Made by a program: the position numbers and the translations under genes
Virus record (IMG/VR): IMGVR_UViG_2579778919_000010
Direction: 5' to 3' (one strand)
DNA length: 36,679 nt
Origin: a virus
Taxonomy: Duplodnaviria > Heunggongvirae > Uroviricota > Caudoviricetes
The notes under the pieces: generated by a model
The model's database searches: none
Told to the model about the DNA's origin: nothing
Seen by the model: the letters and a program-made list of their open reading frames with translations, nothing else
Shown: one piece after another, positions 1 to 32,767 of the stretch
How positions within the stretch are numbered: the first letter of the stretch is position 1
How the letters are laid out: every line of letters begins with the position of its first letter

Positions 1-231
1 ATGAGTGAAGGACCAGGCGGGCCACAGGGAGCGACCGCAGGCGGTACGCTGGCAATGCGAATGCTGTCACAGCAGGCGATGGTCGCCAGCCAGATGAAAC
101 GGGCAGCCAACGACAAAGCCATTGCACAGATGTTGGCATCAAAAAAGTCTGGCCCCCCCGCCGCCAGGCTGGGTGCCGCGCGCCAATCAAAACGCGACAC
201 ATTGACAACTAACATTGGATCGCGTTTGTGA
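1..231 (+). pseudogene. 5' part of a gene split by the prophage insertion. Codons 1-57 are native; the last 19 codons (174..231) are read out of the prophage terminus until a stop
   Basis: ORF is open from the ATG at 1 (an upstream frame ends with TGA at 2-4, giving an ATGA overlap) and crosses the inferred junction at 173/174. Joined to 33070..33832 it reads ...SGPPAARLG/DEIQHKSFLGALAGAVLGAIV..., recreating AARxxDxxxH followed by hydrophobic helices. An internal ATG at 130 would put the motif at residues 11-20. Confidence 0.6.
169..173. repeat. Target-site duplication CTGGG, copy next to the prophage right (R) end
   Basis: CTGGG at 169-173 directly precedes TG at 174; the same pentamer is at 33065-33069 directly after CA at 33063-33064. 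Mu-type transposition makes 5-bp duplications. Confidence 0.6.
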
Positions 232-7275: not shown

Positions 7276-8603
7276 TCTGTTACCTCGACAGGTTTACCCG
7301 GAAGAACGAACGCCGGGTCTTTCAATCGGTTCCTTGACGCGATGGCGTCACGGTTCTCGGTATTACCGGTTTCACGCCATGCAATCAGAGATACCGGGGA
7401 CGTTGTGGTCAGAATGACCGTTCGTGTCTGTGGTAGCTGAGCGCTTCTGACCCGCACGTCATTGACGACGGCAAAGCGCAGCTCGCGCAGGGCATGCCAC
7501 AAATTCCGCTGACCGTTTTCTACGGCATACACAGCTTGTTCATTCAGTTGCTCAGCCAGCGTGTCACCCGCACTTATGGCTTCCTCACTACTTCTGAACT
7601 CGGTGCTGGCAACGGTCTCTGCCTGTCCAATTAGGCTGGCAACGACAATCAGCTGACGAAAATGAGTGATGTTGGCCTGCATGGCATCGGTCAGTTCAGG
7701 GACAACGTCCGGAAGGCTGCTGGCAAAACCATACTTTCCGTCAGTCACTGAACCTGGTGTGACTGACATGTATTTGGGCAACTGGTGAAGTGCAGCGGCT
7801 GTCGCCCGGTCACTTGTATTTGTTGGCGAAACCGGCGACGACCACGGCGAAGATGAAGAACCGGAAAACTGATCTCCCTGCCACCGGTTGCGGATCTGAT
7901 CATAAACCCGCATTGACCAAAGAGGTTCGGTCACGGTGTCGCGTACACCGCTGACAAGGTTCAGAACATCATTGATAAATCCGGCTGGTTTCGCGACGGC
8001 CAGCTCAATCAACCCACGAAAACGCCCTAAACGGTCAGTCCATTCAGTAATCGCGGAGGGCAGCGTCAGCACACCCACTACCAGATTTTCCATGTCGTCC
8101 ATCCACGTATCGGCCATCTCACCAAGACCATCAAGCAGGGCAAAGACATCGCCATTCGCCAGCGCAGCTTTGACCTTATCCGCTGCGCTGAGTACCGTCA
8201 GGCTGGTATTTTCTGCCGGCGCAGGAAACAGGCGCTCGCCCGCCTCAGATACCTCAAAAGAGATGTAGGCAATGCCGCCTTCCTCAGTGCTCAGACGGTG
8301 AGTCACCTTACCAATCTGAACCTTCTGAATGCCGAACCACGGATGGATAAGTTCACCGGGTCCAGGTGTGTTCAGAGCCCGGAGAAGTGCCTCCAGTTGG
8401 CTCTGGTAGTTCTTTCCAATCAGCTTGCCGTTGATTTGCTGTTGGGTCAGAACGGCACCGTTATCCTCGGTCCAGCCCACTTCTTTTTTGGGGTAGGCGC
8501 GGGGAATTGCCCGACGGCCGCTGGTGCCTTCGTTATCGACCAGATAAAACGAGACGCCCCGGAACGAAGCATCGCGCAGGTCTTCCCATCGGGTAGCAGC
8601 CAT
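7272..8603 (-). CDS. N: DNA circularisation protein N (Mu gp43-like)
   Basis: 443 aa directly downstream of the tape measure gene, as in Mu. Confidence 0.75.
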   Translation of the reverse strand: MAATRWEDLRDASFRGVSFYLVDNEGTSGRRAIPRAYPKKEVGWTEDNGAVLTQQQINGKLIGKNYQSQLEALLRALNTPGPGELIHPWFGIQKVQIGKVTHRLSTEEGGIAYISFEVSEAGERLFPAPAENTSLTVLSAADKVKAALANGDVFALLDGLGEMADTWMDDMENLVVGVLTLPSAITEWTDRLGRFRGLIELAVAKPAGFINDVLNLVSGVRDTVTEPLWSMRVYDQIRNRWQGDQFSGSSSSPWSSPVSPTNTSDRATAAALHQLPKYMSVTPGSVTDGKYGFASSLPDVVPELTDAMQANITHFRQLIVVASLIGQAETVASTEFRSSEEAISAGDTLAEQLNEQAVYAVENGQRNLWHALRELRFAVVNDVRVRSAQLPQTRTVILTTTSPVSLIAWRETGNTENRDAIASRNRLKDPAFVLPGKPVEVTD

Positions 8604-10522
8604 CAGCCTTGCTCCACGCTGGACACGCCAGCAGATGCACTAAGTTTGATATCCGGCTGGTTCATGGTGACGCTTTTAACACGGCCACCGCCACCCTCAA
8701 GGATCACGCGGATTTCACCCTGCATTTTCTGTAGGGTTGTGGGTAATGCAGGTGGCTGAACAGGCTTATCAAACGCGTTTTTGTTTTCAATTGCGGCGTT
8801 GGTGCCACGCAGAAAATCAACGATGACACCAAACAAAGAATGATCACTCGTTTCAGGGCGCGGTCTGTCTGCCGGGGGATTTTCAGCCGCAGGAATGAAC
8901 GGCGTCGCCGGGGTCAGTGATGCCCACGGGCGCGGGTCAATAACCGGTTTCTCATTTGCTTTGCGTTTGGCACGATCCTTTGCCCACTGAACCATGCCAG
9001 CTTTGTCATCACTGCTCAGTGATGGTTCTTCATAAAGGTATGGAATAGTTGACGCCAGCATGGTCAGGCCGACCATTTCCTGTGGGCTGCCAGGACGTCT
9101 GGGACTATTAGGTTTACGGGGATTTTTTCCATCAGGTCCATCGGGGATTAAATCACCCGGCCCCCCCATCCCACCTTTGCCCATGTTCACGACATAAACG
9201 GGCATAACACCGGAGCCAAAAACATCGGAGACGCCTTTAGGGATGCCTTTTCCGCCTTTTTCTGGCTGGAGAAACTCCCATGCACCTTTACCAATTTTAA
9301 ATGCTTTACGTGCCGCAATGACTCCAGCGGTCGCAATGGCTATTTTCTTGCCGACTTCCAGCCAGTTCTGAACCGTCTTTTGATCAACTGAATTGATAGC
9401 ATCAGCCAGGTCCTGTACCGGGCCGGCAAGATTGCTGTTAGAAAACTTCTTCCAGGTAACATTCAGGCTGGTCAGTGCCGAAGTAAAATCTTTCGCCGCA
9501 TATTCAGCATCTTTCATGATGCCTGTGCCGTCCCCGACAACTGACTGGTATCGCTTGAGGTTTTCTGCTCCTTTACCAGAGGTGGCACTGCTGATAAGTA
9601 AAATACTGTCCTGGTTAAAACCGGCTTCCAGGAGTCTTTTATTCTGTTTCTCAGAACCTTTACTCCCTGATTTTTTAGCGATTTCCTCCAGGAGTGTTGG
9701 AAGTGATCGCATCTTCCCATCTTTGTCATAAACGTTGACACCATTCTTTCGAAGGGTGCTAACAACCTTTGGCAACTGCAGATCACGAATAAGGTTTTCA
9801 GTCGCCGTGGCTGCTGTATCACGGTTGCCTGTGGCATCAATGGCTGATTCCAGTACAACGCCTACGTCTTTGACTCCCTTAACGCCACTCCCGCCAGCAG
9901 CGGAGTACATAGAGAAGGCTCTGACGCCTTTTTCTGCAATGTCTTTCAGCTCAAATGCGCCTTCTTTTCCCAGAAGGTTTAACGTGTCCATAGCTGCAAG
10001 CGTCTGCTTTTCAGTCTGAAGACCAAATTTGGGGAACTGAGAAAACAGTCCGCCAATCGAATCCCCCTGAGAGCCTGATGCAGCGATAGAGGCGGCTATC
10101 ATGCCCTTATTCTGAATACCGAAATCCAGATCACCGGTCGTTTTGTTGACATTCTCCAGTGCGGCCAACACCTCCGAGTCATCCACCCGGAATTTGATGG
10201 CGGTATCCTGAATACCATCAAAGATATTGCGCATCTCATCACGAGTTTTACCGGCGGCAATACCCAGCCCGGTTAATTGTCGATCTGTTTTAGCAAATTC
10301 TCTCAGCGCTGCGCCGCTGGCAAGGCCGGCAATCATCGTTGTATAGCGATTACTGAGCATGTCCAGACCACGTCCGGCAGATTCAGACGCGGCCTTAACA
10401 ACAGACATTGCTTTCTGGTTACGGCTGGCAAACTCGCTCATGTTAGCGCCGTACTGGCGGGCTTTAGCCGTCAGGTTCCCGGCAAGGTTAATCAGAATTT
10501 CAGTGCTTAGGCGGTTTGTCAT
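8603..10522 (-). CDS. Tail tape measure protein (Mu gp42-like)
   Basis: 639 aa, Gly/Ala-rich with a GKGGMGGPG stretch; lies between the chaperone and N. Confidence 0.85.
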   Translation of the reverse strand: MTNRLSTEILINLAGNLTAKARQYGANMSEFASRNQKAMSVVKAASESAGRGLDMLSNRYTTMIAGLASGAALREFAKTDRQLTGLGIAAGKTRDEMRNIFDGIQDTAIKFRVDDSEVLAALENVNKTTGDLDFGIQNKGMIAASIAASGSQGDSIGGLFSQFPKFGLQTEKQTLAAMDTLNLLGKEGAFELKDIAEKGVRAFSMYSAAGGSGVKGVKDVGVVLESAIDATGNRDTAATATENLIRDLQLPKVVSTLRKNGVNVYDKDGKMRSLPTLLEEIAKKSGSKGSEKQNKRLLEAGFNQDSILLISSATSGKGAENLKRYQSVVGDGTGIMKDAEYAAKDFTSALTSLNVTWKKFSNSNLAGPVQDLADAINSVDQKTVQNWLEVGKKIAIATAGVIAARKAFKIGKGAWEFLQPEKGGKGIPKGVSDVFGSGVMPVYVVNMGKGGMGGPGDLIPDGPDGKNPRKPNSPRRPGSPQEMVGLTMLASTIPYLYEEPSLSSDDKAGMVQWAKDRAKRKANEKPVIDPRPWASLTPATPFIPAAENPPADRPRPETSDHSLFGVIVDFLRGTNAAIENKNAFDKPVQPPALPTTLQKMQGEIRVILEGGGGRVKSVTMNQPDIKLSASAGVSSVEQG

Positions 10523-10608
10523 ATTGCTTCCTCAGTTGCCTGACCTGAATAAGCAACTGCCGTAGGGGCAGTTGCTCAAGCCGGTTAACATCGAAACGCT
10601 GAGAGAGG

Positions 10609-13040: not shown

Positions 13041-13644
13041 CAGTCTGTCCTTCTCTTACGTTTATGATTTGCGGCTCATCGCTTACAGGCTGTCCGTTCA
13101 CCACAATGGTTGCCCCCAGTCGCAGGAATTCCGGCAGCGTGGACAGGTCTATCTCATCATCAAGACGGAATTCCTGTTCCCATGTAACGGCCCACATGGT
13201 GATCCCGAGATTGTCCAGGCCACCCGACCAGAGGTTTTCAGCGGCGATGTTCTCAGCCATACGCTCAGCCTTCATGCCCGCAGCCGCTTCACGACAACTG
13301 ATACGACGGGCAAGGCGTCCGGCAATAACCTCACAGCGGGCATCGCGCGGGTATCCCCAGAAATCAGCCATCATGATGTAGGCCGCCCAGGTCACAAGTC
13401 CGGTCATGCCGCGACGGTTCTGGATATTCCTGACCCGTAAGGCCGCAATACGGATACTGCCGCCGCGCCCGGACATATAGCTTTTGACCTGATCCGGGGT
13501 GTTAAACTGACCGATGTGACGCTCCACCTTTTCAACCCGGTCAGGTTGCTTTTCACCCTCCAGTTCAGCTTTCAGCCAGTTAACAATATTCTCGGCGGCA
13601 CTGACCGTACTGCCCAGGGTGACGAACGCCGGACGTTCATTCAT
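13021..13644 (-). CDS. Neck / tail completion protein (Mu gp37-like)
   Basis: 207 aa, synteny. Confidence 0.5.
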   Translation of the reverse strand: MNERPAFVTLGSTVSAAENIVNWLKAELEGEKQPDRVEKVERHIGQFNTPDQVKSYMSGRGGSIRIAALRVRNIQNRRGMTGLVTWAAYIMMADFWGYPRDARCEVIAGRLARRISCREAAAGMKAERMAENIAAENLWSGGLDNLGITMWAVTWEQEFRLDDEIDLSTLPEFLRLGATIVVNGQPVSDEPQIINVREGQTDDKEND

Positions 13645-14186
13645 TGCAGAACCTCATTCCAGAAATCCCCGATGACGTGCAGCAGTTCCTGACTGTTCCC
13701 GGAGGACAGGCCGAGGAACTCACGCTGCGGGATGTTCAACATACGTTTATGCGCCCCCACGGTTTGCCATACCCCGTGTTTAAGCGCCCGTCCAAATGCC
13801 TGTGAGATGAGTCGCTTATGGGCTGACACAGACACCGAGCCGGAAAACCCCTCGTTGTGCGTCCGGCCATAATCAAGCGGCGTACCCACACGAACGACAG
13901 AGCCGCTGACCACATACTGGATACTGTCGAGCAGATCGCCGTTGCCCTGTAACAGGCTCTGGTTGCTGTGTCTGGTTTTCGCGTAGCTGTCAGACCAGTC
14001 CTGCCATTTCTCGCCGGCAGGACTGGATTTTTCGCTGGAGATGCGCCGGCGGGTCTGTGACTCCACCACAGCGCCAATGCTCTCCAGTAGCTCCTGTTGC
14101 AGCGACTGGTCAGCCAGTCGCTCAATCGCACGGCGAATGTCCTGAAACTTCTGGTCTCCTCTGACCTCGACAGTAATTCCCATCAC
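13641..14186 (-). CDS. Virion morphogenesis / tail completion protein
   Basis: 181 aa, synteny between head and tail modules. Confidence 0.5.
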   Translation of the reverse strand: MMGITVEVRGDQKFQDIRRAIERLADQSLQQELLESIGAVVESQTRRRISSEKSSPAGEKWQDWSDSYAKTRHSNQSLLQGNGDLLDSIQYVVSGSVVRVGTPLDYGRTHNEGFSGSVSVSAHKRLISQAFGRALKHGVWQTVGAHKRMLNIPQREFLGLSSGNSQELLHVIGDFWNEVLQ

Positions 14187-15216: not shown

Positions 15217-15299
15217 TTTTTAAACCTCATTCAGGTTGGGTTTAAAGGAGGGTTAACCCCTCCTTAATCCGGCATTACGTGATTTTTTACGTAATGACG

Positions 15300-16193
15300 T
15301 CATGCTTTGACGTAAGGTGAGACCAGCAGGTCAACATCCTTGTAATAGATGTTTGAACCACCACCATCAGCCGTAACCGCTTCAATCAGCGCCTTGGCCG
15401 CACCACGGTTGTTCTTACCGACGACCAGCAATGTCGGATTCATGCCCAGAGGTTCGCCGTTAGAGTCCGTGATACCCATCATTGCGGAGACAGCGGCTTC
15501 ATAGTTCGCTTTGTTCAGTGCTGCTTTTGACCCCACACAGGTCTGCCAGAAACCAAAGCCAACGTTGCTGCGGCCATCGGTCCCGTAGGCGAATTCGTTC
15601 TGAAGGAACACACGCTCACTGGTGAGATCATCAAGGGCGATGAAGTTAAACGGACGGCGCTCCTGGTAAATGATGGGCAGCAGCGCATGCGTTGCATCAA
15701 TCAGGAACCACGGCTCACCCGTATCGGTCGCCGGGTCGCCCACAACGTTCGATTTGGTGGATGTACCAACAGGGTGATCAGTATCGAAGAAATACTGACC
15801 GTCCCAGCACAGCGTATCGAAGCCTTTGCACAGCAACTCAAACGACAGCTTGTCCGGGAAAATCGTGGTATCGCGGCCAAGCTGCTCAGCAATCACGGAA
15901 TACTGACCAATCTGATCGTCCTCGATTTTTTCGCGCTTGACCTTGACCGAGTTTTCCCAGGTCTTGTTGGTAATGACATACCCGGCCTGAGCCAGTTCTT
16001 TCAGCTGACGCGCCCCGATCCATTCTTTGATGGTCGGGAAGTCTTCAACCCAGCCATAAGTGTTAGACGCGCCGGAACTGGGGATGACCGTGGCGATGGA
16101 TCGATACTGCGGATTGACCCGACCAACACCTTTGGTAAAGGCGGCGCTCAGTGCGGTGGTCAGGGCATGCAACACTTCTGCGGATACCTGCAT
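15300..16193 (-). CDS. T: Major head (capsid) protein T
   Basis: 297 aa; Mu gpT-like; follows protease/scaffold gene I. Confidence 0.85.
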   Translation of the reverse strand: MQVSAEVLHALTTALSAAFTKGVGRVNPQYRSIATVIPSSGASNTYGWVEDFPTIKEWIGARQLKELAQAGYVITNKTWENSVKVKREKIEDDQIGQYSVIAEQLGRDTTIFPDKLSFELLCKGFDTLCWDGQYFFDTDHPVGTSTKSNVVGDPATDTGEPWFLIDATHALLPIIYQERRPFNFIALDDLTSERVFLQNEFAYGTDGRSNVGFGFWQTCVGSKAALNKANYEAAVSAMMGITDSNGEPLGMNPTLLVVGKNNRGAAKALIEAVTADGGGSNIYYKDVDLLVSPYVKA

Positions 16194-16196
16194 GAA

Positions 16197-17153
16197 TTAT
16201 TTCTCCTGCTTACGAACGGAAAGGAATTCTTCTTCGCTGATGCCCATATGGCGGCACATCGCGAGGTCTTCGTCAGAAAGCGAGGCATGACCTTCGGTGC
16301 CTTCTTTTTTGGTCGTCGTGGTCTTGCTGACAATGACCGGTGCCGCTTTCACGAATTCAGCAAACCGCTTTCGGCCCTCTTCAGAGCGGCAGGTGGCGAG
16401 ATACATTTCTCGGTTGGCCGGTGCGACTTTCCCCGACTCAATGGCGCTGTCCACCAGTGCTTCTGATTCTTTGATGGCAATCTCATTGAGTTTGTTTTCA
16501 GCGCTTTCCGCACGGTTAAGTGCTAACTGGTGGGTCTCTACCGGAATGAACTTCGTCAGGTCAGGATTCTCAGCGCGGTTAAGCGCCACCTGCTCGGCGG
16601 TCTTAATCTGCTGAATGGCTTTTACTGCGTCGTCTGCTGTGGCAGTGGCCGCGAGGCCAAGCACTGTCACAATCTGGACAGGTACGGTCATCGTGTTTTC
16701 CTCAGAGTTGAGTGCGGGTAAATCAAGGTTGGGTTTGTTGGTCAGCGCGGCGCTGGACAGGCGGGTGACCTGACCGTCCGCAGTGAACCGAAAGGCCGGA
16801 CTGTAATAGAGGTACTTCTTGCCGCGCAGCTGCGCCATGCCGTCATCAGTCCATTCAACGTGCGCCTCCACCACGCCATCACTGACGCGATAGCCGTCAA
16901 TCCAGCCATAAGCCGGGGCTTCATCGCCTTTCGGGCCTTTCAGTTCGGTAGAGTGCTCGATATCAAACGGGAGCTTTGGATAAGCCATCGAGGCACGAAT
17001 GATGGCTTCCGGATTGTTGTTCACCCACGAACGGCCATCACGCCCTGTAAAGGTTCCCGCCGGTATCATCGGCAGCCATTCCGGCAATGCATCATCGGTA
17101 AGGTCAGGAAGCTGAAAGCAGAGCGCCAGCAGTTCCGTATTGTTCGGGTTCAT
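16197..17153 (-). CDS. I: Head protease / scaffold protein I (with probable internal Z-like C-terminal part)
   Basis: 318 aa Mu I-like; acidic coiled-coil C-terminal half typical of scaffold. Confidence 0.8.
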   Translation of the reverse strand: MNPNNTELLALCFQLPDLTDDALPEWLPMIPAGTFTGRDGRSWVNNNPEAIIRASMAYPKLPFDIEHSTELKGPKGDEAPAYGWIDGYRVSDGVVEAHVEWTDDGMAQLRGKKYLYYSPAFRFTADGQVTRLSSAALTNKPNLDLPALNSEENTMTVPVQIVTVLGLAATATADDAVKAIQQIKTAEQVALNRAENPDLTKFIPVETHQLALNRAESAENKLNEIAIKESEALVDSAIESGKVAPANREMYLATCRSEEGRKRFAEFVKAAPVIVSKTTTTKKEGTEGHASLSDEDLAMCRHMGISEEEFLSVRKQEK

Positions 17154-17356
17154 GGTGTTGTCCGGTCACGTTGTTTACTTCCGGACAGTGTGGGGGGGAA
17201 CGGGGATGCAGGTGGATTAACCGGCTTCACTGTAAACGCGGCATGAAACCGCGTTTAAAACACGTTTAAAAACGCTGTGGCGCGTTTAACGATTTTTTCA
17301 CGTGCCGTCATGACGTAATAATCGTTAATGCCGCCACGCGCGTTGTGGGATGGTTT
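17154..17356. promoter_or_regulatory. Near-central intergenic region with CGCGTTTAA-type repeats: candidate late promoter and/or strong gyrase site analogue
   Basis: Three direct copies (accgcgtttaaaac, acacgtttaaaaac, ggcgcgtttaacg) plus an inverted copy (taaacgcgg); a 7-bp inverted repeat TGTCCGG/CCGGACA just upstream of the I start; ~600 bp from the prophage midpoint. Confidence 0.4.
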
Positions 17357-18151
17357 TTATCTTTGTGGCGAATGACTGTCAAACGCGTCCTGTTTTCTGC
17401 GTAGCTGTTCATCCAGCTCGCGACTGCGGGAGATTCCGGGGTTGTACGCCCAGCCGGGATCAATCCCCTCCGGAATGGTCTCTTCTTCGCCGGTGCGTTT
17501 GTTAACCCATCTGACCGTACGCACTTCAGGGGCTTCCGTGTTGATAGTGCCGTTGGCCTTCATCTGCTCATACTCATACCGGCTGATTTGCCGTGTACCG
17601 CATTTGCATCCCCAGCCGTTCGGCCCCATGTGTGTTCGCCAGAACGGATGATCCACCGGCAGGCAGACATCCTTCCAGCGCAGATGCTCCGCACGGTGCT
17701 CACGTGAGGGGCCGACGGTGTAGACAAGATAAGGCATTGCCCGTTGGGTCCGTTCAATACGCTGCCATTGTCCCGCCGCGCGGGCTGTCCGCATGTTGGT
17801 GTCGTAGATAACGCGCATCCGGCGGTCACTGCCGAGCTGGACAGTACGGGTTTCACCGGTCAGTGGATCATCCATCAGTTGCTGTCCCCACCATCCACGT
17901 TTGACCAGCATAGGTTTAAGAACCTCGCGAAATTGCTCAAAGGTCTGGCCGCTCTCCAGTGCGTCCTCCACGAGCTGGCGAACGTCCGCCAGCAAATCAA
18001 GCTGCGTCATCTTTGCCACAGTAAAGCCGATGCTGTGTTCTTCCATCCAGACATCGCGGTAATCAAATCCCGGCTTCAGCTTTTTCGCCTTCAGCCAGGC
18101 CAGTGCTTCCTGGGGAATAATGCTGTATTTATCGCTGACCGGCTTAGCCAT
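17357..18151 (-). CDS. F: Head morphogenesis protein F (Mu gp30-like)
   Basis: 264 aa immediately downstream of the portal gene. Confidence 0.75.
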   Translation of the reverse strand: MAKPVSDKYSIIPQEALAWLKAKKLKPGFDYRDVWMEEHSIGFTVAKMTQLDLLADVRQLVEDALESGQTFEQFREVLKPMLVKRGWWGQQLMDDPLTGETRTVQLGSDRRMRVIYDTNMRTARAAGQWQRIERTQRAMPYLVYTVGPSREHRAEHLRWKDVCLPVDHPFWRTHMGPNGWGCKCGTRQISRYEYEQMKANGTINTEAPEVRTVRWVNKRTGEEETIPEGIDPGWAYNPGISRSRELDEQLRRKQDAFDSHSPQR

Positions 18152-24532: not shown

Positions 24533-25123
24533 TCAGCTCCGGGCTACCGAATAGCGGACACCGGAAATCTCACGACAGGCGTCAGCGAGGTTGTCAAGGC
24601 GGTTAAACCAGCCGTTGAGGAACTTGCCCTGCGAAGAGTTTGCTTTGATGATGTCGGCGTAATAGCGGGAACGTTGCAGAAACAAACGGTTCAGCAGCCA
24701 GTCAGGGTCAGCACGCTCAACGGCTGCACGGGTGTTTTTACCGGCGATACCGTCAACGCTTTTGCCAGTGAAACCCACAGCTTCCTGAAGCAACTGGACA
24801 GCCTTTTTGACGCCATGCTGGACGGCAGAATCAAAGACAAACAGGGCGATATCATCCGGCCATAACTGGCAATACGCCGGATACCAGTAGTCACGGAAGT
24901 AAATCTGTCCGGCCTGTTCAACCGTTAAATCACGAATACGAGTATCAGGCTTGCCATCGCCATTAACGTCGGTCATGCCATCGGCAACACCGTCGCGTTT
25001 ATCTGATATACCGAAGTTAGTTTCACCGCCACGGTCAGTGGGGTCATTGACATATCCGCGTTCTGCGCTGAGCACGAAAGCAAGAGCATTGCGAAATGCG
25101 GGAGAATCGGGGGTGTTGTTCAT
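24533..25123 (-). CDS. lys: Endolysin, GH108 lysozyme domain with C-terminal peptidoglycan-binding domain
   Basis: ERGYVNDPTDRGGETNFGI signature of GH108 and a C-terminal GWFNRL-type PG-binding region. Confidence 0.8.
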   Translation of the reverse strand: MNNTPDSPAFRNALAFVLSAERGYVNDPTDRGGETNFGISDKRDGVADGMTDVNGDGKPDTRIRDLTVEQAGQIYFRDYWYPAYCQLWPDDIALFVFDSAVQHGVKKAVQLLQEAVGFTGKSVDGIAGKNTRAAVERADPDWLLNRLFLQRSRYYADIIKANSSQGKFLNGWFNRLDNLADACREISGVRYSVARS

Positions 25124-25176
25124 AAAACGGCACCTTTGGAAGTGGGTTAGATTTCCCTTCCATCATGTGCCGGACG

Positions 25177-25201
25177 AAAAAAAAGCCGGATTAACCGGCT
25201 T
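25177..25201 (-). terminator. Intrinsic terminator downstream of the AT-rich moron
   Basis: On the minus strand: stem AAGCCGG / loop TTAAT / CCGGCTT followed by an 8-U run (plus strand: aaaaaaaa-gccggattaaccggctt). Confidence 0.65.
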
Positions 25202-25219
25202 CATTGTATTGGCTATAAC

Positions 25220-25547: not shown

Positions 25548-25955
25548 TCACTCCATATTAAATGAGAGCTGCCTCTTACCTTGCTCTAACTTTCGCATTC
25601 TCCGGATTGCTTTATACACCGTTTTATAGGTAACACGGTAACGCTCAACCAACTCTGTGATGTTTCTGCCATTGAAATCACGCCAGATTTTCATATCACG
25701 AATCAATGACTCAAGAGTCTGGCCGCGTGGAAAATAAATCTGCATTCCACCAATCTGACAGCTAATCGCATAGACCAGCTCCAGAGAGATTCGTGGGTCA
25801 ACACCATGCTTTGTCAGTTCGCCACGCAACAGCGTATTCAGTTCTGTCAGCAGTGCAGGGAAACGCACAGTTTCCGCCGAACTGTCATCGTCCAGGTGCT
25901 CCAGAATGCTGTCATCCTGGATATCACCAAACAGGTCATTCTGCTTTTCGCTCAT
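25548..25955 (-). CDS. mor: Middle operon regulator Mor
   Basis: DLFGDIQDDSILEHL...RFPALLTELNTLLRGEL...IRDMKIWRDFNGRNITELVERYRVTYKTVYKAIRRMR closely matches Mu Mor as recalled. Confidence 0.9.
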   Translation of the reverse strand: MSEKQNDLFGDIQDDSILEHLDDDSSAETVRFPALLTELNTLLRGELTKHGVDPRISLELVYAISCQIGGMQIYFPRGQTLESLIRDMKIWRDFNGRNITELVERYRVTYKTVYKAIRRMRKLEQGKRQLSFNME

Positions 25956-28820: not shown

Positions 28821-29759
28821 TCACTCCTCTCCGATACCGCTGTGGCCCAGCTCCAGCATGGCGGACTGGATGTGCGCCGTGCCAATGGTCTCACCCTTGC
28901 CCTGAGCGTAAATTCCGGCCAGCGGCAGGATGTGCGACAGAGAACGCAGCGCCCCCGGACGTCGGGCGATAGCCTTCAGCAGCTTGCGTTCGTCAGCGCC
29001 GGTGACCTGCCAGGCATCGCAGAAGCTGTCCACGTCACCAGCGGAAACGGTATTGATGACGTACTTCTTGGACACGCGGGAGAACAGGCGGGCAAAATCC
29101 ACGCTGCGCTGGCCGCCGGTAAGACGGTCATAGACCTTGTGGTTACCCACCAGTGCCAGCCCCACGCCACATTCCTCCTGGAGAATACGCAGCTCTTCCA
29201 CCGCATCCAGACTCAGCCAGTCGGCTTCATCCACCACTATCAGGCCGCGCGTGTCCGGCAGACGCTGGCGCAGCAGGCGAGAGAGTGCACCACGGCGGTA
29301 TGGCGCATCGCTGATGCCCATTTTCAGGGCCAGTTCATACAGGGTCTCCAGCTCATTGCTGCGGGATTTGCTGGCGGTGATGTGCCAGACGTTATTACCG
29401 CCTGCGGCATACTGCCGGATAGCCTTTGTCTTACCCACGCCCGGATTGCCGTAAACCAGCACAATCGTCCCGGCCAGCTGCGCCCACGTCAGGGTGGCGA
29501 GGATTTTCTGAGAGGTCGGTGTCTCAACGAAATCAGGGGCCACCGGAAGCGTGGTTTTCGCGGCGTTGTGACTTTCAAGCCAGGTATTCAGGCTGGCAGC
29601 TACGGTGTCATTGTCACCTTTGTATTTCCCGTTCAGGAACTGTGAAACCGTCGCGGTTGATGTACCGGTCTCACGCGCCAGCGCTGCACCGGAAATCGTC
29701 TTGCTGTCGATAAGTTCACGAATGGCACTGCGCACAACATCATGGTTAATTTGCGTCAT
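28821..29759 (-). CDS. B: Transposition protein B (AAA+ ATPase, target DNA activator)
   Basis: 312 aa with Walker A GNPGVGKT and Walker B LIVVDEAD; N-terminal HTH; directly downstream of A. Confidence 0.93.
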   Translation of the reverse strand: MTQINHDVVRSAIRELIDSKTISGAALARETGTSTATVSQFLNGKYKGDNDTVAASLNTWLESHNAAKTTLPVAPDFVETPTSQKILATLTWAQLAGTIVLVYGNPGVGKTKAIRQYAAGGNNVWHITASKSRSNELETLYELALKMGISDAPYRRGALSRLLRQRLPDTRGLIVVDEADWLSLDAVEELRILQEECGVGLALVGNHKVYDRLTGGQRSVDFARLFSRVSKKYVINTVSAGDVDSFCDAWQVTGADERKLLKAIARRPGALRSLSHILPLAGIYAQGKGETIGTAHIQSAMLELGHSGIGEE

Positions 29760-29854: not shown

Positions 29855-31837
29855 TTATTTCCGTGCCTGTTTAGCCTTATTAACAAACTGCTGGAAAATA
29901 ACGTCGTTTTCGCTCTGCGTTTCCTGTATGTCCTCCACGCGCTTGACGGTGTTGCCCAGGGTAAATACACGCTCCACCACATGCCGCTCCGGCAGTTCTG
30001 CATGCTCAGTCTTCGGCAGCAGGTCATTCACCTCAATCGCCGTCATACGGTTCAGAGCCTTAGTCGCTTTCTTCGTACTCTTGATCATCTCGCGGCGTGC
30101 ACGGTTGTGTTCACGTCCAGCCTCGGTATCGCCAAAGGCCACGGCGGCACGACACTCAGCCATGCAAAGGAAACGGCCGTCGAGGTCATAACAGGCGACT
30201 TCTCCGTGCAGGTTCCTTGGATCAAACCGGACGGTGATTTTGCGCGAGCGGTGGCTGACGAGCTGTTCACTCCAGTAAGTATTCTTACGGCCAAATAACG
30301 AGCCCCCGCACTCCATCGTAAATTCGCCTGTAGTCTTCACGCGTACAGCTTCCGCAGGCAGCATCAGTTGACGAATTTGCTCTTCGGTCATACGGGTGAT
30401 GACTGACTGGCTGTAGCTGCGCTCAAACGCCTGGTCGAAGGACAGTTCCCCCCGGCACATCTCGGTCTCGCGCCCGGCCTTCGCGTTGAACATGGCGACA
30501 CCTTCGCTGATGGTTTCCAGGAATGTATCCACATCCACCGCCCGGCTGCCGTAGTTCTCTGGCTTGGAGCTGACGTTTTCACCGGCAAATGCTCCAGCCA
30601 GCGCAGGATGTTTGTCGATATATTCGCCCAGACCGCCCACGCCGAAGGCACGTTCAACGGGCTTTGCCTGTCCCCAGCCCTTACCGCCAATCACCCCCGT
30701 CCAGTGCAGCTTCATTCCCAGCAGAGGGATGATCCCCATCGGGTCATCAGGTTTGACTTTGAAGCGGTAACGGTTAGGAACGCCACCGGACAGCCATTTA
30801 TTTGCAGCAGCGCGGGTGTTATCGATGGTCACATGTTTAGGCTTACCGTAAGCGCGGATGGTATCCATCAGGGATAAACGGATGCTGTCACTGTTCTCCG
30901 ACAAATCAGCACGCCAGCCAATAATTTTGCGACTGTGGACATCCTGCCAGAACCACGTTTTAGGACGGATGATGTCGCCGTTAAACCAACGGACAAACAC
31001 GTTGTGCTGGTAACCGTCGCCATTGATCCACTCCATCGCATGAAGATATGCCACGGTGCGCTGCTGCGACGGATACATCTGCGCCAGCGCGTTCTCGCCC
31101 TCACGGGTGGCAACGACGATACGCGGATCAACTTCACGTTCTAGCTTGCGGCGCAGAGTGCGCTCAGCGGGAATAATCCAGCCATGAGCATCTGCCGCCT
31201 TTTCAAGGCGCTCATAGCTTTTGGAGAAGAACGGCGCTTCGTTTCGCAGATAATCGCCCAGGAAGAACTGCCAGGCATCTTCAGAGATATCGGCAGTCCG
31301 GCCAGTCTGACGTTTTTCACGCACACGGCGGTCAAGCAGTACCGGACCCCAGAGGTCAGGACTATGGTCTTTGACTTTGTAGTAAAGATTGCGCAGCGTA
31401 CCTTCACTGATTTGCAGCTGTTTTGCTGCCAGCGTGATCGCCTTACGATTGCCGATGCCGGAAGCCATCAGTTCCGCCACCAGCGCGGCAGCTTTAGTCC
31501 GGCGTTCTGCATGCAGACGCTGCTCGCCGGTAGCTTTCTCCCATGCAGACCACAGTCGCTGGCGTTCCAGATCGTCAGCCGCCACGCGCTCAGGCTCCTG
31601 TGGCAATGTAATCAGCCCGGATGATGTTTCAATCAGGCCACGTGCGGCCAGCAGTTCAGCGCGGACTTCAGGTGGCAACACCGATATGTGGTATTCGAAT
31701 GCTTTGGTGCCAGCACGTTTACGGCGTAGTTCACTACGTCCACTGACAAAAGACTCCAAATGTTTTCTGACGTTCTTTTCTGCATTAGGAAAAGAACAAA
31801 TTCCTACGCATTCTTTTGCGGTAACCCAGAAATCCAT
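29855..31837 (-). CDS. A: Mu-type DDE transposase A
   Basis: 660 aa; long collinear similarity to MuA as recalled ([36 protein letters not shown]..., [19 protein letters not shown]..., LLPAEAV...). Confidence 0.95.
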   Translation of the reverse strand: [660 protein letters not shown]

Positions 31838-32073: not shown

Positions 32074-32302
32074 TCTGCGATCCTTAAATGTTTACACGTT
32101 CAGGTCAGCAATATCGCTAACCACTACGAGTAAAGATTAGAACACAAAAGAACGAAAGTAAATACTTTTGCGTACTTTTATGGTTGATGAGGTTAACCAT
32201 GATATTTTATTTAAAATCAAATCGTTACTTGATTTTCCGTGGTTAATCACAAAAAAGTACCAGATGTATTTTTCAATAACACAGAAAAGTACGGTGAATG
32301 AT
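32074..32302. promoter_or_regulatory. Early operator / divergent promoter region between ner and c
   Basis: AT-rich; repeated TACTTTT / AAAGTA elements (cgaaagtaaatacttttgcgtacttttatgg, aaaagtaccag, gaaaagtacgg) resembling Mu repressor-binding repeats. Confidence 0.55.
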
Positions 32303-32767
32303 ATGGTTGATTTTAGTGAATGGGTGTCAGTTCAGGATTGTATTGGTCTACCAGGTTTCCCCAGTGGAGCGCCGAATGTCCGGCGGAAACTGGAACAACT
32401 TGTGAGTAATAATCCTAAGTTGAAACGTAAGAAGGCTAAATCGAAAGCATATGAATATCATGTATCGGTCTTGCCAGAAGAAACAAAGAAATTCTTGGGG
32501 GTAGAAGAGCGCTCAGTTATACCTGACTCAGCCTTATCGTCACCAAGCTCAACAGCTCGGGACCTATGGATAATGCTTTTCGACAACTTAACAGAGCGTC
32601 AAAAACAGTATGTTATTAAGGTTTTCATGCAAGGTGGGCTGAACGCTTTAATGCCGATGGTAGCTGATTTGGAAGCCAGTGCAGATAGAGAGATTTTTGA
32701 ACAACGTGATCCCAATGAACAGATTCAAGCCGCGCCGAAGCTGAGCACGCGAAATAAAGCTGGCTGA
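32303..32767 (+). CDS. c: Repressor c (Repc-like), with N-terminal DNA-binding domain paralogous to the transposase N-terminus
   Basis: DFSEWVSVQDCIGLPGFPSGAPNVRRKLEQL...AKSKAYEYHVSVLPEE parallels the A N-terminus [29 protein letters not shown]...[14 protein letters not shown]. Start uncertain: 32168, 32264 and 32303 are all in frame; upstream candidates overlap operator-like repeats. Confidence 0.65.
   Translation: MVDFSEWVSVQDCIGLPGFPSGAPNVRRKLEQLVSNNPKLKRKKAKSKAYEYHVSVLPEETKKFLGVEERSVIPDSALSSPSSTARDLWIMLFDNLTERQKQYVIKVFMQGGLNALMPMVADLEASADREIFEQRDPNEQIQAAPKLSTRNKAG

Follow-up and report, generated by a model that had tools for sequence, protein, structure and literature searches.

A predicted Mu-type central gyrase site and a predicted Mor-type promoter lie side by side upstream of the protease gene in a Mu-like prophage of Escherichia coli

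The intergenic gap upstream of the protease gene I (17154-17356) in the window, the whole 36,679-nt stretch of DNA analysed here, is probably the counterpart of the G-I intergenic region of phage Mu. From its sequence it appears to combine two adjacent DNA elements with one RNA element, namely a predicted central gyrase site of the Mu strong-gyrase-site type (17337-17238, minus strand), a predicted promoter of the Mu Pm type (17237-17179, minus strand) and a hairpin at the start of I. An earlier note on this DNA had proposed a gyrase site or a late promoter for the gap; our comparisons point to both, as neighboring elements, and to a promoter of the Mor/Pm type, so that a C-dependent promoter like the one that the note mentioned before I in Mu is not borne out.

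The window carries a Mu-like E. coli prophage whose minus-strand genes include those for transposases A (29855-31837) and B (28821-29759), a Mor-family activator (25548-25955) that is orthologous to Mu Mor, the lysis gene lys (24533-25123), an F-like head protein of 264 aa (17357-18151; Pfam Phage_Mu_F) and protease I of 318 aa (16197-17153, ATG at 17153-17151; Pfam Mu-like_Pro), as well as terminase, portal and contractile-tail genes. A repressor gene is on the plus strand (32168-32767); the major head protein T (15300-16193), a G-family gene away from the gap (13641-14186) and an invertase (239-829) are also encoded. Comparison with the different insertion site in strain ECONIH4 places the prophage ends at 174 and 33064, with TG at the start of both ends, a length of 32,891 bp and a midpoint at 16619. 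The same prophage (97-100% identity) is present in just 5 of 5426 complete E. coli genomes, and its nearest deposited phage is Klebsiella phage Kp4866-3 (~70% DNA identity). Mu is too distant for blastn to pick up over the flanking genes, the flanking 2 kb giving no match to it, and the I proteins of the prophage and Mu are 26% identical.

The gap separates the Phage_Mu_F gene from the Mu-like_Pro gene and, at 203 bp, exceeds all other gaps of the minus-strand gene chain, of which the longest measure 96, 95, 89, 86 and 83 bp. It lies 535-737 bp from the prophage midpoint (~2% of genome length), which agrees with the distance of about 600 bp and the sizeable central gap between F and I described in the earlier note. 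The equivalence to the central site of Mu that the note had drawn also holds for position, with the central element at 47.9% from the prophage left end and the Mu cut at 48.7%. The I start has a median folded position of 0.47 in a set of 40 related contigs, each 30-40 kb long. ORFs in the gap encode merely 21-32 aa from non-ATG starts, none with supporting evidence, and a search of the gap against Rfam gave no match at E-values up to 1.

The repeats that first drew attention to the gap are concentrated there. Exact copies of TTAAACGCG occur twice in the 36.7-kb window, both in the gap (17250-17258 and 17281-17289, minus strand) and 31 bp apart. Allowing up to one mismatch, there are 17 matches in the window, four of them inside 58 bp of the gap; these are the three direct copies (17289, 17269 and 17258, minus strand) and one inverted copy (17232-17240) that had been reported, and a fifth near match is found at 17379-17387. 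Shuffled windows contain 7.8 ± 3.0 such matches and 0 of 100 reach 17; by our own arithmetic, such a density corresponds to ~0.03 matches expected in 58 bp. The inverted copy forms the 3' arm of an inverted repeat, TAAACGCGG-N7-CCGCGTTTA (17257-17233, minus strand). The G-run of the earlier note is present as a C7 run on the coding strand (17198-17192), reaching one base into the predicted -10 hexamer discussed below. The note had also connected the AAACGCG core of the repeats with the inferred right terminus. The 7-mer does occur there (190-196, plus strand; 221-227, minus strand), but Mu has AAAACGCGA at a matching offset (15-24 nt) from its own right end, and the terminal copy is thus a feature of the end region with no relation to the prophage center; the proposed link is ruled out.

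In the Mu record (AF083977), the G-I gap is 196 bp long and contains the gyrase cut (17879/80), followed by a predicted terminator and then the late promoter PI. [quoted passage not shown] They align at one place alone, a 24-nt block of the form AAACGCGCCAC-AGCG-TTTTTAAAC (17287-17264, minus strand) that is identical to Mu 17898-17921 at 21 of 24 positions with equal spacing; the Mu counterpart, AAACGCGCCAC-GGGA-TTTTTAAAC, begins 18 nt past the Mu cut. One helical turn after the block there is a third TTTAAC-type unit, in the prophage and Mu alike. The local alignment score of the prophage gap against that of Mu is 24, compared with 9.65 ± 1.42 (maximum 18) for 2000 dinucleotide shuffles. The complete right-arm homologue (17299-17253, minus strand) consists of an A6 tract (17298-17293), R1 (TTAAAC, 17289-17284), R2 (TTTTTAAAC, 17272-17264) and R3 (TTTTAAAC, 17260-17253), with TpA steps 20 and 11 bp apart. 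For A/T periodicity at 10-11 bp, positions 17226-17278 rank among the top 0.07% of 53-bp windows and the Mu right arm among the top 0.37% of windows in Mu, neither arm being the single best window.

What is known of the Mu site gives this match its meaning. The 133-bp “Mu SGS” fragment of Sutormin et al. maps to Mu 17812-17944, centered at 17878, and includes the Mu 24-nt block; with the position matrix of that study, Mu scores 14.3. In the gyrase complex a 35-bp G-segment adjoins a 49-bp wrap around the GyrA beta-pinwheel (PMC13284261), and the Mu block starts where the G-segment ends and this wrap begins. The right arm, and not the left, is required for the preferential action of gyrase; it forms the T-segment, with its A/T repeats facing the protein and its G/C stretches facing outward (PMC10052514; PMC11626157; PMC13284261). 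Taken together, the alignment and the published role of the right arm suggest that the direct repeats are the counterpart of the phased bending signals of Mu, and they support placing the three direct repeats in the arm of a gyrase site, not in a promoter.

The prophage locus and the Mu strong gyrase site have further features in common: both are near-central and slightly left of center, both have the I gene on the promoter side, with the gyrase site preceding the promoter, and both show comparable 10-11-bp A/T phasing through the right-arm block and the third phased TTTAAC-type signal. They differ in the upstream gene (G in Mu, F in the prophage), in the core and left arm, which cannot be aligned, in the T6 that Mu has where the prophage has its A6 tract, in the 9-bp perfect palindrome that flanks the presumed core of the prophage, and in the Mu-type terminator, which does not follow the site in the prophage.

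The predicted gyrase core, or G-segment region (17337-17277, minus strand), is an interrupted inverted repeat. It comprises two pairs of arms, GTGGCG (17337-17332) with CGCCAC (17282-17277) and TTAACGATT (17328-17320) with AATCGTTAA (17294-17286), the latter being the 9-bp perfect arms given by a dyad search. Both dyads are centered on 17307, 18 nt before R1; dyads of differing sequence occur at -18/-19 from R1 in several other lineages. The center of the Mu cut is 14.5 nt before Mu R1, and the Mu-equivalent cut position in the prophage would be ~17306/17305. The core and the left part do not align with Mu, which leaves the cut position uncertain; given a dyad axis at -18 and a Mu cut center at -14.5, the cut likely falls within 17310-17300, a range that the two values narrow no further. 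Match counts to the published 133-bp gyrase consensus (exact, or by strong/weak class) did not rank the Mu site highly within Mu, and the center of the consensus alone (15-37 bp) failed the same Mu control; because these proxies missed the known site of Mu they are invalid, and lend no support either way. Central sites of Mu-like prophages were reportedly cut by gyrase in the work of Oram and Pato (2004), although some of the sites that were cut are said to have given no support to Mu replication, and good replacement of the Mu site was reportedly achieved by the closest Mu relative only. Homology is thus no guarantee of strong-site function. To our knowledge, the present prophage lineage is apparently not among the sites in that study.

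The right-arm signature extends well beyond this prophage. The exact 24-nt pattern is found on 36 viral contigs from at least 6 highly divergent sequence families, some apparently from G+C-rich genomes (judged by the flanks), and lies between F or G and I wherever flanking genes were examined. In an unbiased sample of loci collected through the I protein (41-98% identity to that of the window), the R2-R3 pair is present in 67 of 80 distinct I-upstream regions (≤600 nt from I, coding strand) and the full R1-R2-R3 series in 58 of 80; the remainder of those loci, 256 kb on the same strand, contains 5 matches. Named hosts include Brenneria, Raoultella, Klebsiella, Trabulsiella, Pluralibacter and Kluyvera, and the Grimontia and Enterovibrio loci encode I proteins with ~47% identity. 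A scan of genome contigs yielded 13 loci. Spacing is invariant, with 20 bp from R1 to R2 and 11 bp from R2 to R3, and variation in the hexamers is confined to TT[A/G]AA[C/G], so that a pyrimidine-purine step (TpA or TpG) is always kept at the center. TTGAAG is the form of all three repeats in one lineage and TTGAAC that of R2 and R3 in another; the A-to-G change also occurs in single repeats (loci L051 and L061). Close relatives differ freely from one another in the R1-R2 spacer. The hexamer pattern of a T-tract, a pyrimidine-purine step and an A-tract would fit a mechanical signal for bending or kinking, as opposed to a code for protein recognition.

Adaptation of the TTGAAC variants to the gyrase of the host is unlikely, since TTAAAC and TTGAAC forms both occur in Enterobacteriaceae. 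A separate observation concerns exact GCGCCAC, which is kept between very distant phages and seems more than pure mechanical bending would need.

It is a real possibility, a little short of an even chance, that R1-N14-R2-N4-R3 (TTAAAC...TTTTTAAAC...TTTAAAC, in many cases with exactly GCGCCACGGCG as spacer) represents a gyrase-site arm defined by its sequence and common to most Enterobacterales Mu-like phages, some phages of Vibrionaceae and some from apparently G+C-rich genomes. It is established that the strong gyrase site of Mu is central and that some Mu-like prophages have gyrase sites at their centers (PMC3820752; PMC10052514). The strong conservation of a defined right-arm signature across Mu-like phages may be less appreciated.

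Three other explanations for the repeats were considered. Chance is excluded: short A/T-rich motifs do turn up readily, and across the whole window the 7-mer AAACGCG shows no strong enrichment (11 copies versus 6.4 ± 2.3), but a functionless cluster in an A/T-rich spacer does not account for both exact 9-mers lying 31 bp apart, for a Mu alignment score reached by 0 of 2000 shuffles, or for an architecture shared by 67 of 80 distinct loci. A more substantial proposal, which we nevertheless consider unlikely, is that the repeats form an array bound by a sequence-specific phage or host protein other than gyrase (serving transposition, packaging or regulation), with only an incidental or secondary overlap with the Mu arm. 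Retention of exact AAACGCGCCAC...TTTTTAAAC between phages with just 26% identity in their I proteins, some of them with apparently G+C-rich genomes, would suit such an array, as would the set spacing of 20 and 11 bp and the seemingly concerted TTGAAG and TTGAAC versions. The single-repeat changes in L051 and L061 indicate that the repeats do not change in a strictly concerted manner, the allowed substitutions all retain the features expected of a mechanical signal, and the R1-R2 spacer is free to vary among close relatives. Moreover, purified gyrase acts preferentially on Mu DNA with no other protein present, an activity ascribed to the right arm (PMC10052514; PMC11626157; PMC13284261), and no candidate protein is known.

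Still less probable, in our judgment, is that the repeats and palindromes act chiefly as RNA, in a terminator or processing structure that ends the lysis-to-F transcript. The 209-nt sense RNA does fold stably (-64.6 kcal/mol; z = -4.2 versus shuffles), R1 can pair with R2 and R3 with the inverted copy (R4), and the terminator predicted in the Mu record overlaps Mu R2-R3. However, terminator-like sites are absent from the sense strand, both hits being on the opposite strand; neither stem is followed by a U run; and there is no Rfam match. The R1/R2 helix has 0 compensatory changes and fails to pair in up to 6 of 18 sequences, the R3/R4 helix (helix 3, TAAACGCGG-N7-CCGCGTTTA) is 80% paired with one pair changed on both sides, and the overall signal for conserved structure is no better than that of shuffles. 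An intrinsic terminator of the upstream operon was consequently rejected, there being no hairpin with a T run on the sense strand and no covariation in the candidate helices. The arm of a Mu-type gyrase site is the reading that we retain for the direct repeats.

The predicted promoter adjoins the predicted gyrase site on its downstream side. Its central feature is a putative Mor-binding element, AGTGAAGCCGGTTAAT (AGTGA-AGCCGG-TTAAT, 17231-17216, minus strand), in which two 5-bp inverted repeats enclose a G/C-rich hexamer. The Mor site of Mu Pm has this same organization and is centered at -43.5, and bases -57 to -53 of Pm are GTAAA (Ma and Howe, PMC4390567). The published bases give a Mu element of AGTAA-AGCCGG-TTAAT, a -10 of TATCCT (-13 to -8) and a spacer of 22 nt; the prophage element matches that of Mu at 15 of 16 bases, and at 20 of 21 with flanks. 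A different assignment of the Mor site, AAGCCGG-TTAAT-CCGGCTT, was discarded as its geometry disagreed with the published center at -43.5, a conflict that the bases in PMC4390567 resolved. Directly upstream of the element is the A/T-rich GTTTAC (17237-17232, minus strand; GTAAAC in Mu), which from its position would be the site of the Pm proximal UP subsite (-57 to -52; numbering and subsite from PMC4390567). The comparison supports a placement in which the inverted repeat copy lies immediately next to the Mor element, where Pm has this subsite.

Downstream of the Mor element, a pyrimidine-rich spacer of 23 nt (17215-17193, minus strand; 22 nt in Mu Pm) leads to the predicted -10, CACACT (17192-17187, minus strand), which is CATACT or GACACT in relatives. 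No -35 hexamer is evident before CACACT in the gap sequence; CACACT itself has just 3 of the 6 bases of the TATAAT consensus, and Pm has a spacer 1 nt shorter. With geometry copied from Mu Pm, transcription would start near 17179. The overall plan of Mor box, 22-23-nt pyrimidine-rich spacer, (C/G)A(C/T)ACT, hairpin and ATG is kept in 42 distinct relatives, and in 42 of 42 the spacer is 22-23 nt long and free in sequence.

A second site of this kind is found in the same prophage. The 15-mer GAAGCCGGTTAATCC occurs exactly twice in the window, at 17228-17214 and at 25202-25188, the latter overlapping a putative Mor element (AATGA-AGCCGG-TTAAT, 25205-25190, minus strand) in the 96-bp gap upstream of lys. 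This element is followed after 22 nt by a -10, CATGAT (25167-25162). As at Mu Pm, a terminator-like hairpin, with T8 after it, overlaps the element.

The likely activator of these promoters is the product of the gene at 25548-25955, which is 63% identical to Mu Mor over the whole protein, C-terminal DNA-binding region included, and 35% identical to Mu C. It corresponds to the sole Mor/C-family gene annotated in the same prophage of ECONIH4, and the 107-aa ORF next to it has no similarity to C. The C box is TTAT-N5-6-ATAA (PMC12867686), and reading through the gap sequence upstream of the -10 revealed no such box. A Mor box, a single Mor-like activator and the lack of a C gene together argue for a promoter of the Mor/Pm type over one of the C/PI type, and the dependence of the promoter on Mor is what we would expect from these features.

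The resemblance to Mu Pm (AF083977 9163-9233) thus comprises the 16-bp Mor element, the A/T-rich hexamer upstream of it, the missing -35, the 22-23-nt spacer to a weak -10 with A at position 2 and T at position 6, and the cognate activator. Unlike Pm, which drives a C gene, the prophage promoter would drive the head operon (I, T); its spacer is C-rich and not T-rich; it is without the overlapping terminator hairpin, which is kept by the copy upstream of lys (25205-25162); and it has a conserved hairpin over the -10 and start region. With the C-dependent Mu promoter PI (AF083977 17977-18043) the prophage promoter shares its genomic place and operon, a -10 of the same form (CAAACT in Mu, CACACT in the prophage) and a 7-bp inverted repeat between the -10 and the I start (CTGCTCA-N10-TGAGCAG in Mu). 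It differs from PI in that the activator site is a Mor box, not a C box, and in that the prophage has no C gene.

The 7-bp inverted repeat that the earlier note had seen just before I is the hairpin TGTCCGG-N15-CCGGACA (17187-17159, minus strand), with arms at 17187-17181 and 17165-17159, which ends 5 nt before the ATG. Its 5' arm overlaps the -10 and discriminator, and its 3' arm holds the GGA of the likely I ribosome-binding site. A hairpin is predicted in most of 27 distinct sequences, the L078-L087 group having it in a shifted or weak form. Its arms vary with lineage, with TGTCCGG/CCGGACA in the prophage and CTGTCCGTC/GACGGACAG, GTCTGCAT../..ATGCGGAT or GTCCATAC../..GTGTGGAT in others. Members of the last two groups (L071, L073, L077, L089 and L101) have stems with 3-4 G-U pairs that are stable in the sense strand only (-10.8 to -12.3 versus -3.3 to -7.1 kcal/mol), which points to a hairpin that acts as RNA rather than DNA. 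Pair counts based on a MAFFT alignment revealed modest covariation, as most columns are conserved and the loops are misaligned. Since the 5' arm is upstream of the predicted transcription start, the hairpin can form only in read-through RNA; in such RNA from the F operon it would pair with the I ribosome-binding site. We tentatively suggest, well short of considering it likely, that the hairpin restricts translation of I to transcripts initiated through Mor.

These elements can be assembled into a provisional model. Host gyrase would bind and cut the roughly two-fold symmetric core near 17307, and the next ~50 bp, with phased TTTAAAC signals (T-tract, flexible TpA step, A-tract) every ~10-11 bp, would wrap one GyrA C-terminal domain and present the T-segment, as does the right arm of Mu. 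Processive supercoiling from the middle of the prophage would then help to bring its two ends together for replicative transposition. Both the cleavage by gyrase and this role in transposition are what we infer from likeness to Mu. At the adjoining promoter, the Mor-family activator would bind AGTGAAGCCGGTTAAT in place of a -35 and recruit sigma-70 RNA polymerase to CACACT, with transcription of the I-T head operon starting near 17179 and the lysis operon served by the twin promoter. With predicted Mor promoters at both the head and the lysis operons, the phage is apparently without the separate C-dependent late step of Mu, and its late genes seem to run directly from Mor.

The locus thus appears to be a further example of two established kinds of element, a Mu-type central gyrase site and a Mor-dependent promoter. 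This would account for the only large intergenic gap of the prophage and predicts where host gyrase engages; one Mor-type activator probably controls the lysis operon as well as the head operon. The comparison also provides a simple signature, at the sequence level, of the working arm of the Mu gyrase site, present upstream of I in about five-sixths of the distinct loci sampled, and the TTGAAG and TTGAAC versions of the repeat would give structural biology natural variants of the best-studied gyrase substrate. The generality of central gyrase sites in transposable phages was called unclear in a 2021 paper (PMC8705779), and it becomes testable by sequence and a few cleavage assays. If the proposed arm is indeed common to these phages, transposable phages would carry central gyrase sites as a conserved feature that can be predicted, and the unusually exact conservation of the arm would imply either that the GyrA C-terminal domain makes strong demands on sequence or that a second factor reads the same DNA.

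A further element resembling the 16-bp Mor-binding box of Mu Pm, GTTAACCGGCTTGAGC, lies on the minus strand at 10574-10589, in the 86 bp of intergenic DNA that precede the tape-measure gene (8603-10522). It is in inverted orientation, with the plus strand reading AAGCCGGTTAAC (one mismatch), and a 22-nt spacer separates it from a following TATTCA. The element may represent a third Mor-dependent promoter of the prophage, and this candidate would be analogous to PP, the promoter for the tail genes of Mu. The predicted promoter of the lysis gene (25124-25219, minus strand) contains an inverted repeat, GGAAGGG ... CCCaCTTCC, that starts directly 3' of the -10 and resembles the hairpin preceding the protease gene I; a stem over the start region is therefore common to both Mor promoters.

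Past the end of the major head gene T, an 83-bp gap (15217-15299, minus strand) contains two strong hairpins, CATTACGT-N8-ACGTAATG and AAGGAGGG-N5-CCCTCCTT, the second followed by TTAAAC, and is the top-ranking window for 10-11-bp A/T periodicity. It is probably the terminator after T; the Mu annotation has one at the same place.

The ends of the prophage (174-260 and 33064-32975 regions) were set by comparing the window with a second insertion site. AAAACGCGA occurs at the right ends of both the prophage and Mu with the same 15-24 nt offset, and the right-end region has a second AAACGCG, inverted, at 221-227. The left end aligns weakly with that of Mu, starting at offset 13. In E. coli ECONIH4 (NZ_CP026399.1 563010-603510), the same prophage is inserted among the tail genes of a lambdoid prophage, and the tail-fibre region of this copy itself contains an IS66 element.

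In most enterobacterial relatives (loci L046-L090), a conserved motif, GGTACGATG(A/G), occurs where the gyrase core is presumed to lie. It precedes by ~20-30 nt R1, the first of three direct TTAAAC-type repeats (R1-R3) in the right arm of the predicted gyrase site; the window lineage has TTACGTCATGAC in place of the motif. The presumed-core motif is loosely like the centre of the published gyrase consensus (GGTAT-GGGG-ATACC), in a comparison that did not recover the site of Mu itself.

Klebsiella/Raoultella-type relatives have a ~330-bp insert exactly between R3 and the Mor-box promoter of I (L055:1049-1384; L054:1068-1397; L059:1068-1397; L066:1060-1374, each locus a relative compared with the window). 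The insert comprises a single ORF of 104-111 aa, present as four diverged alleles, none of which has a match in Pfam or PHROG. In D3112-like Pseudomonas phages, anti-CRISPR genes occupy the equivalent slot, at the expected position of the strong gyrase site (PMC8705779). The insertion site between R3 and the I promoter in the Klebsiella/Raoultella-type relatives is a candidate moron or anti-defence slot.
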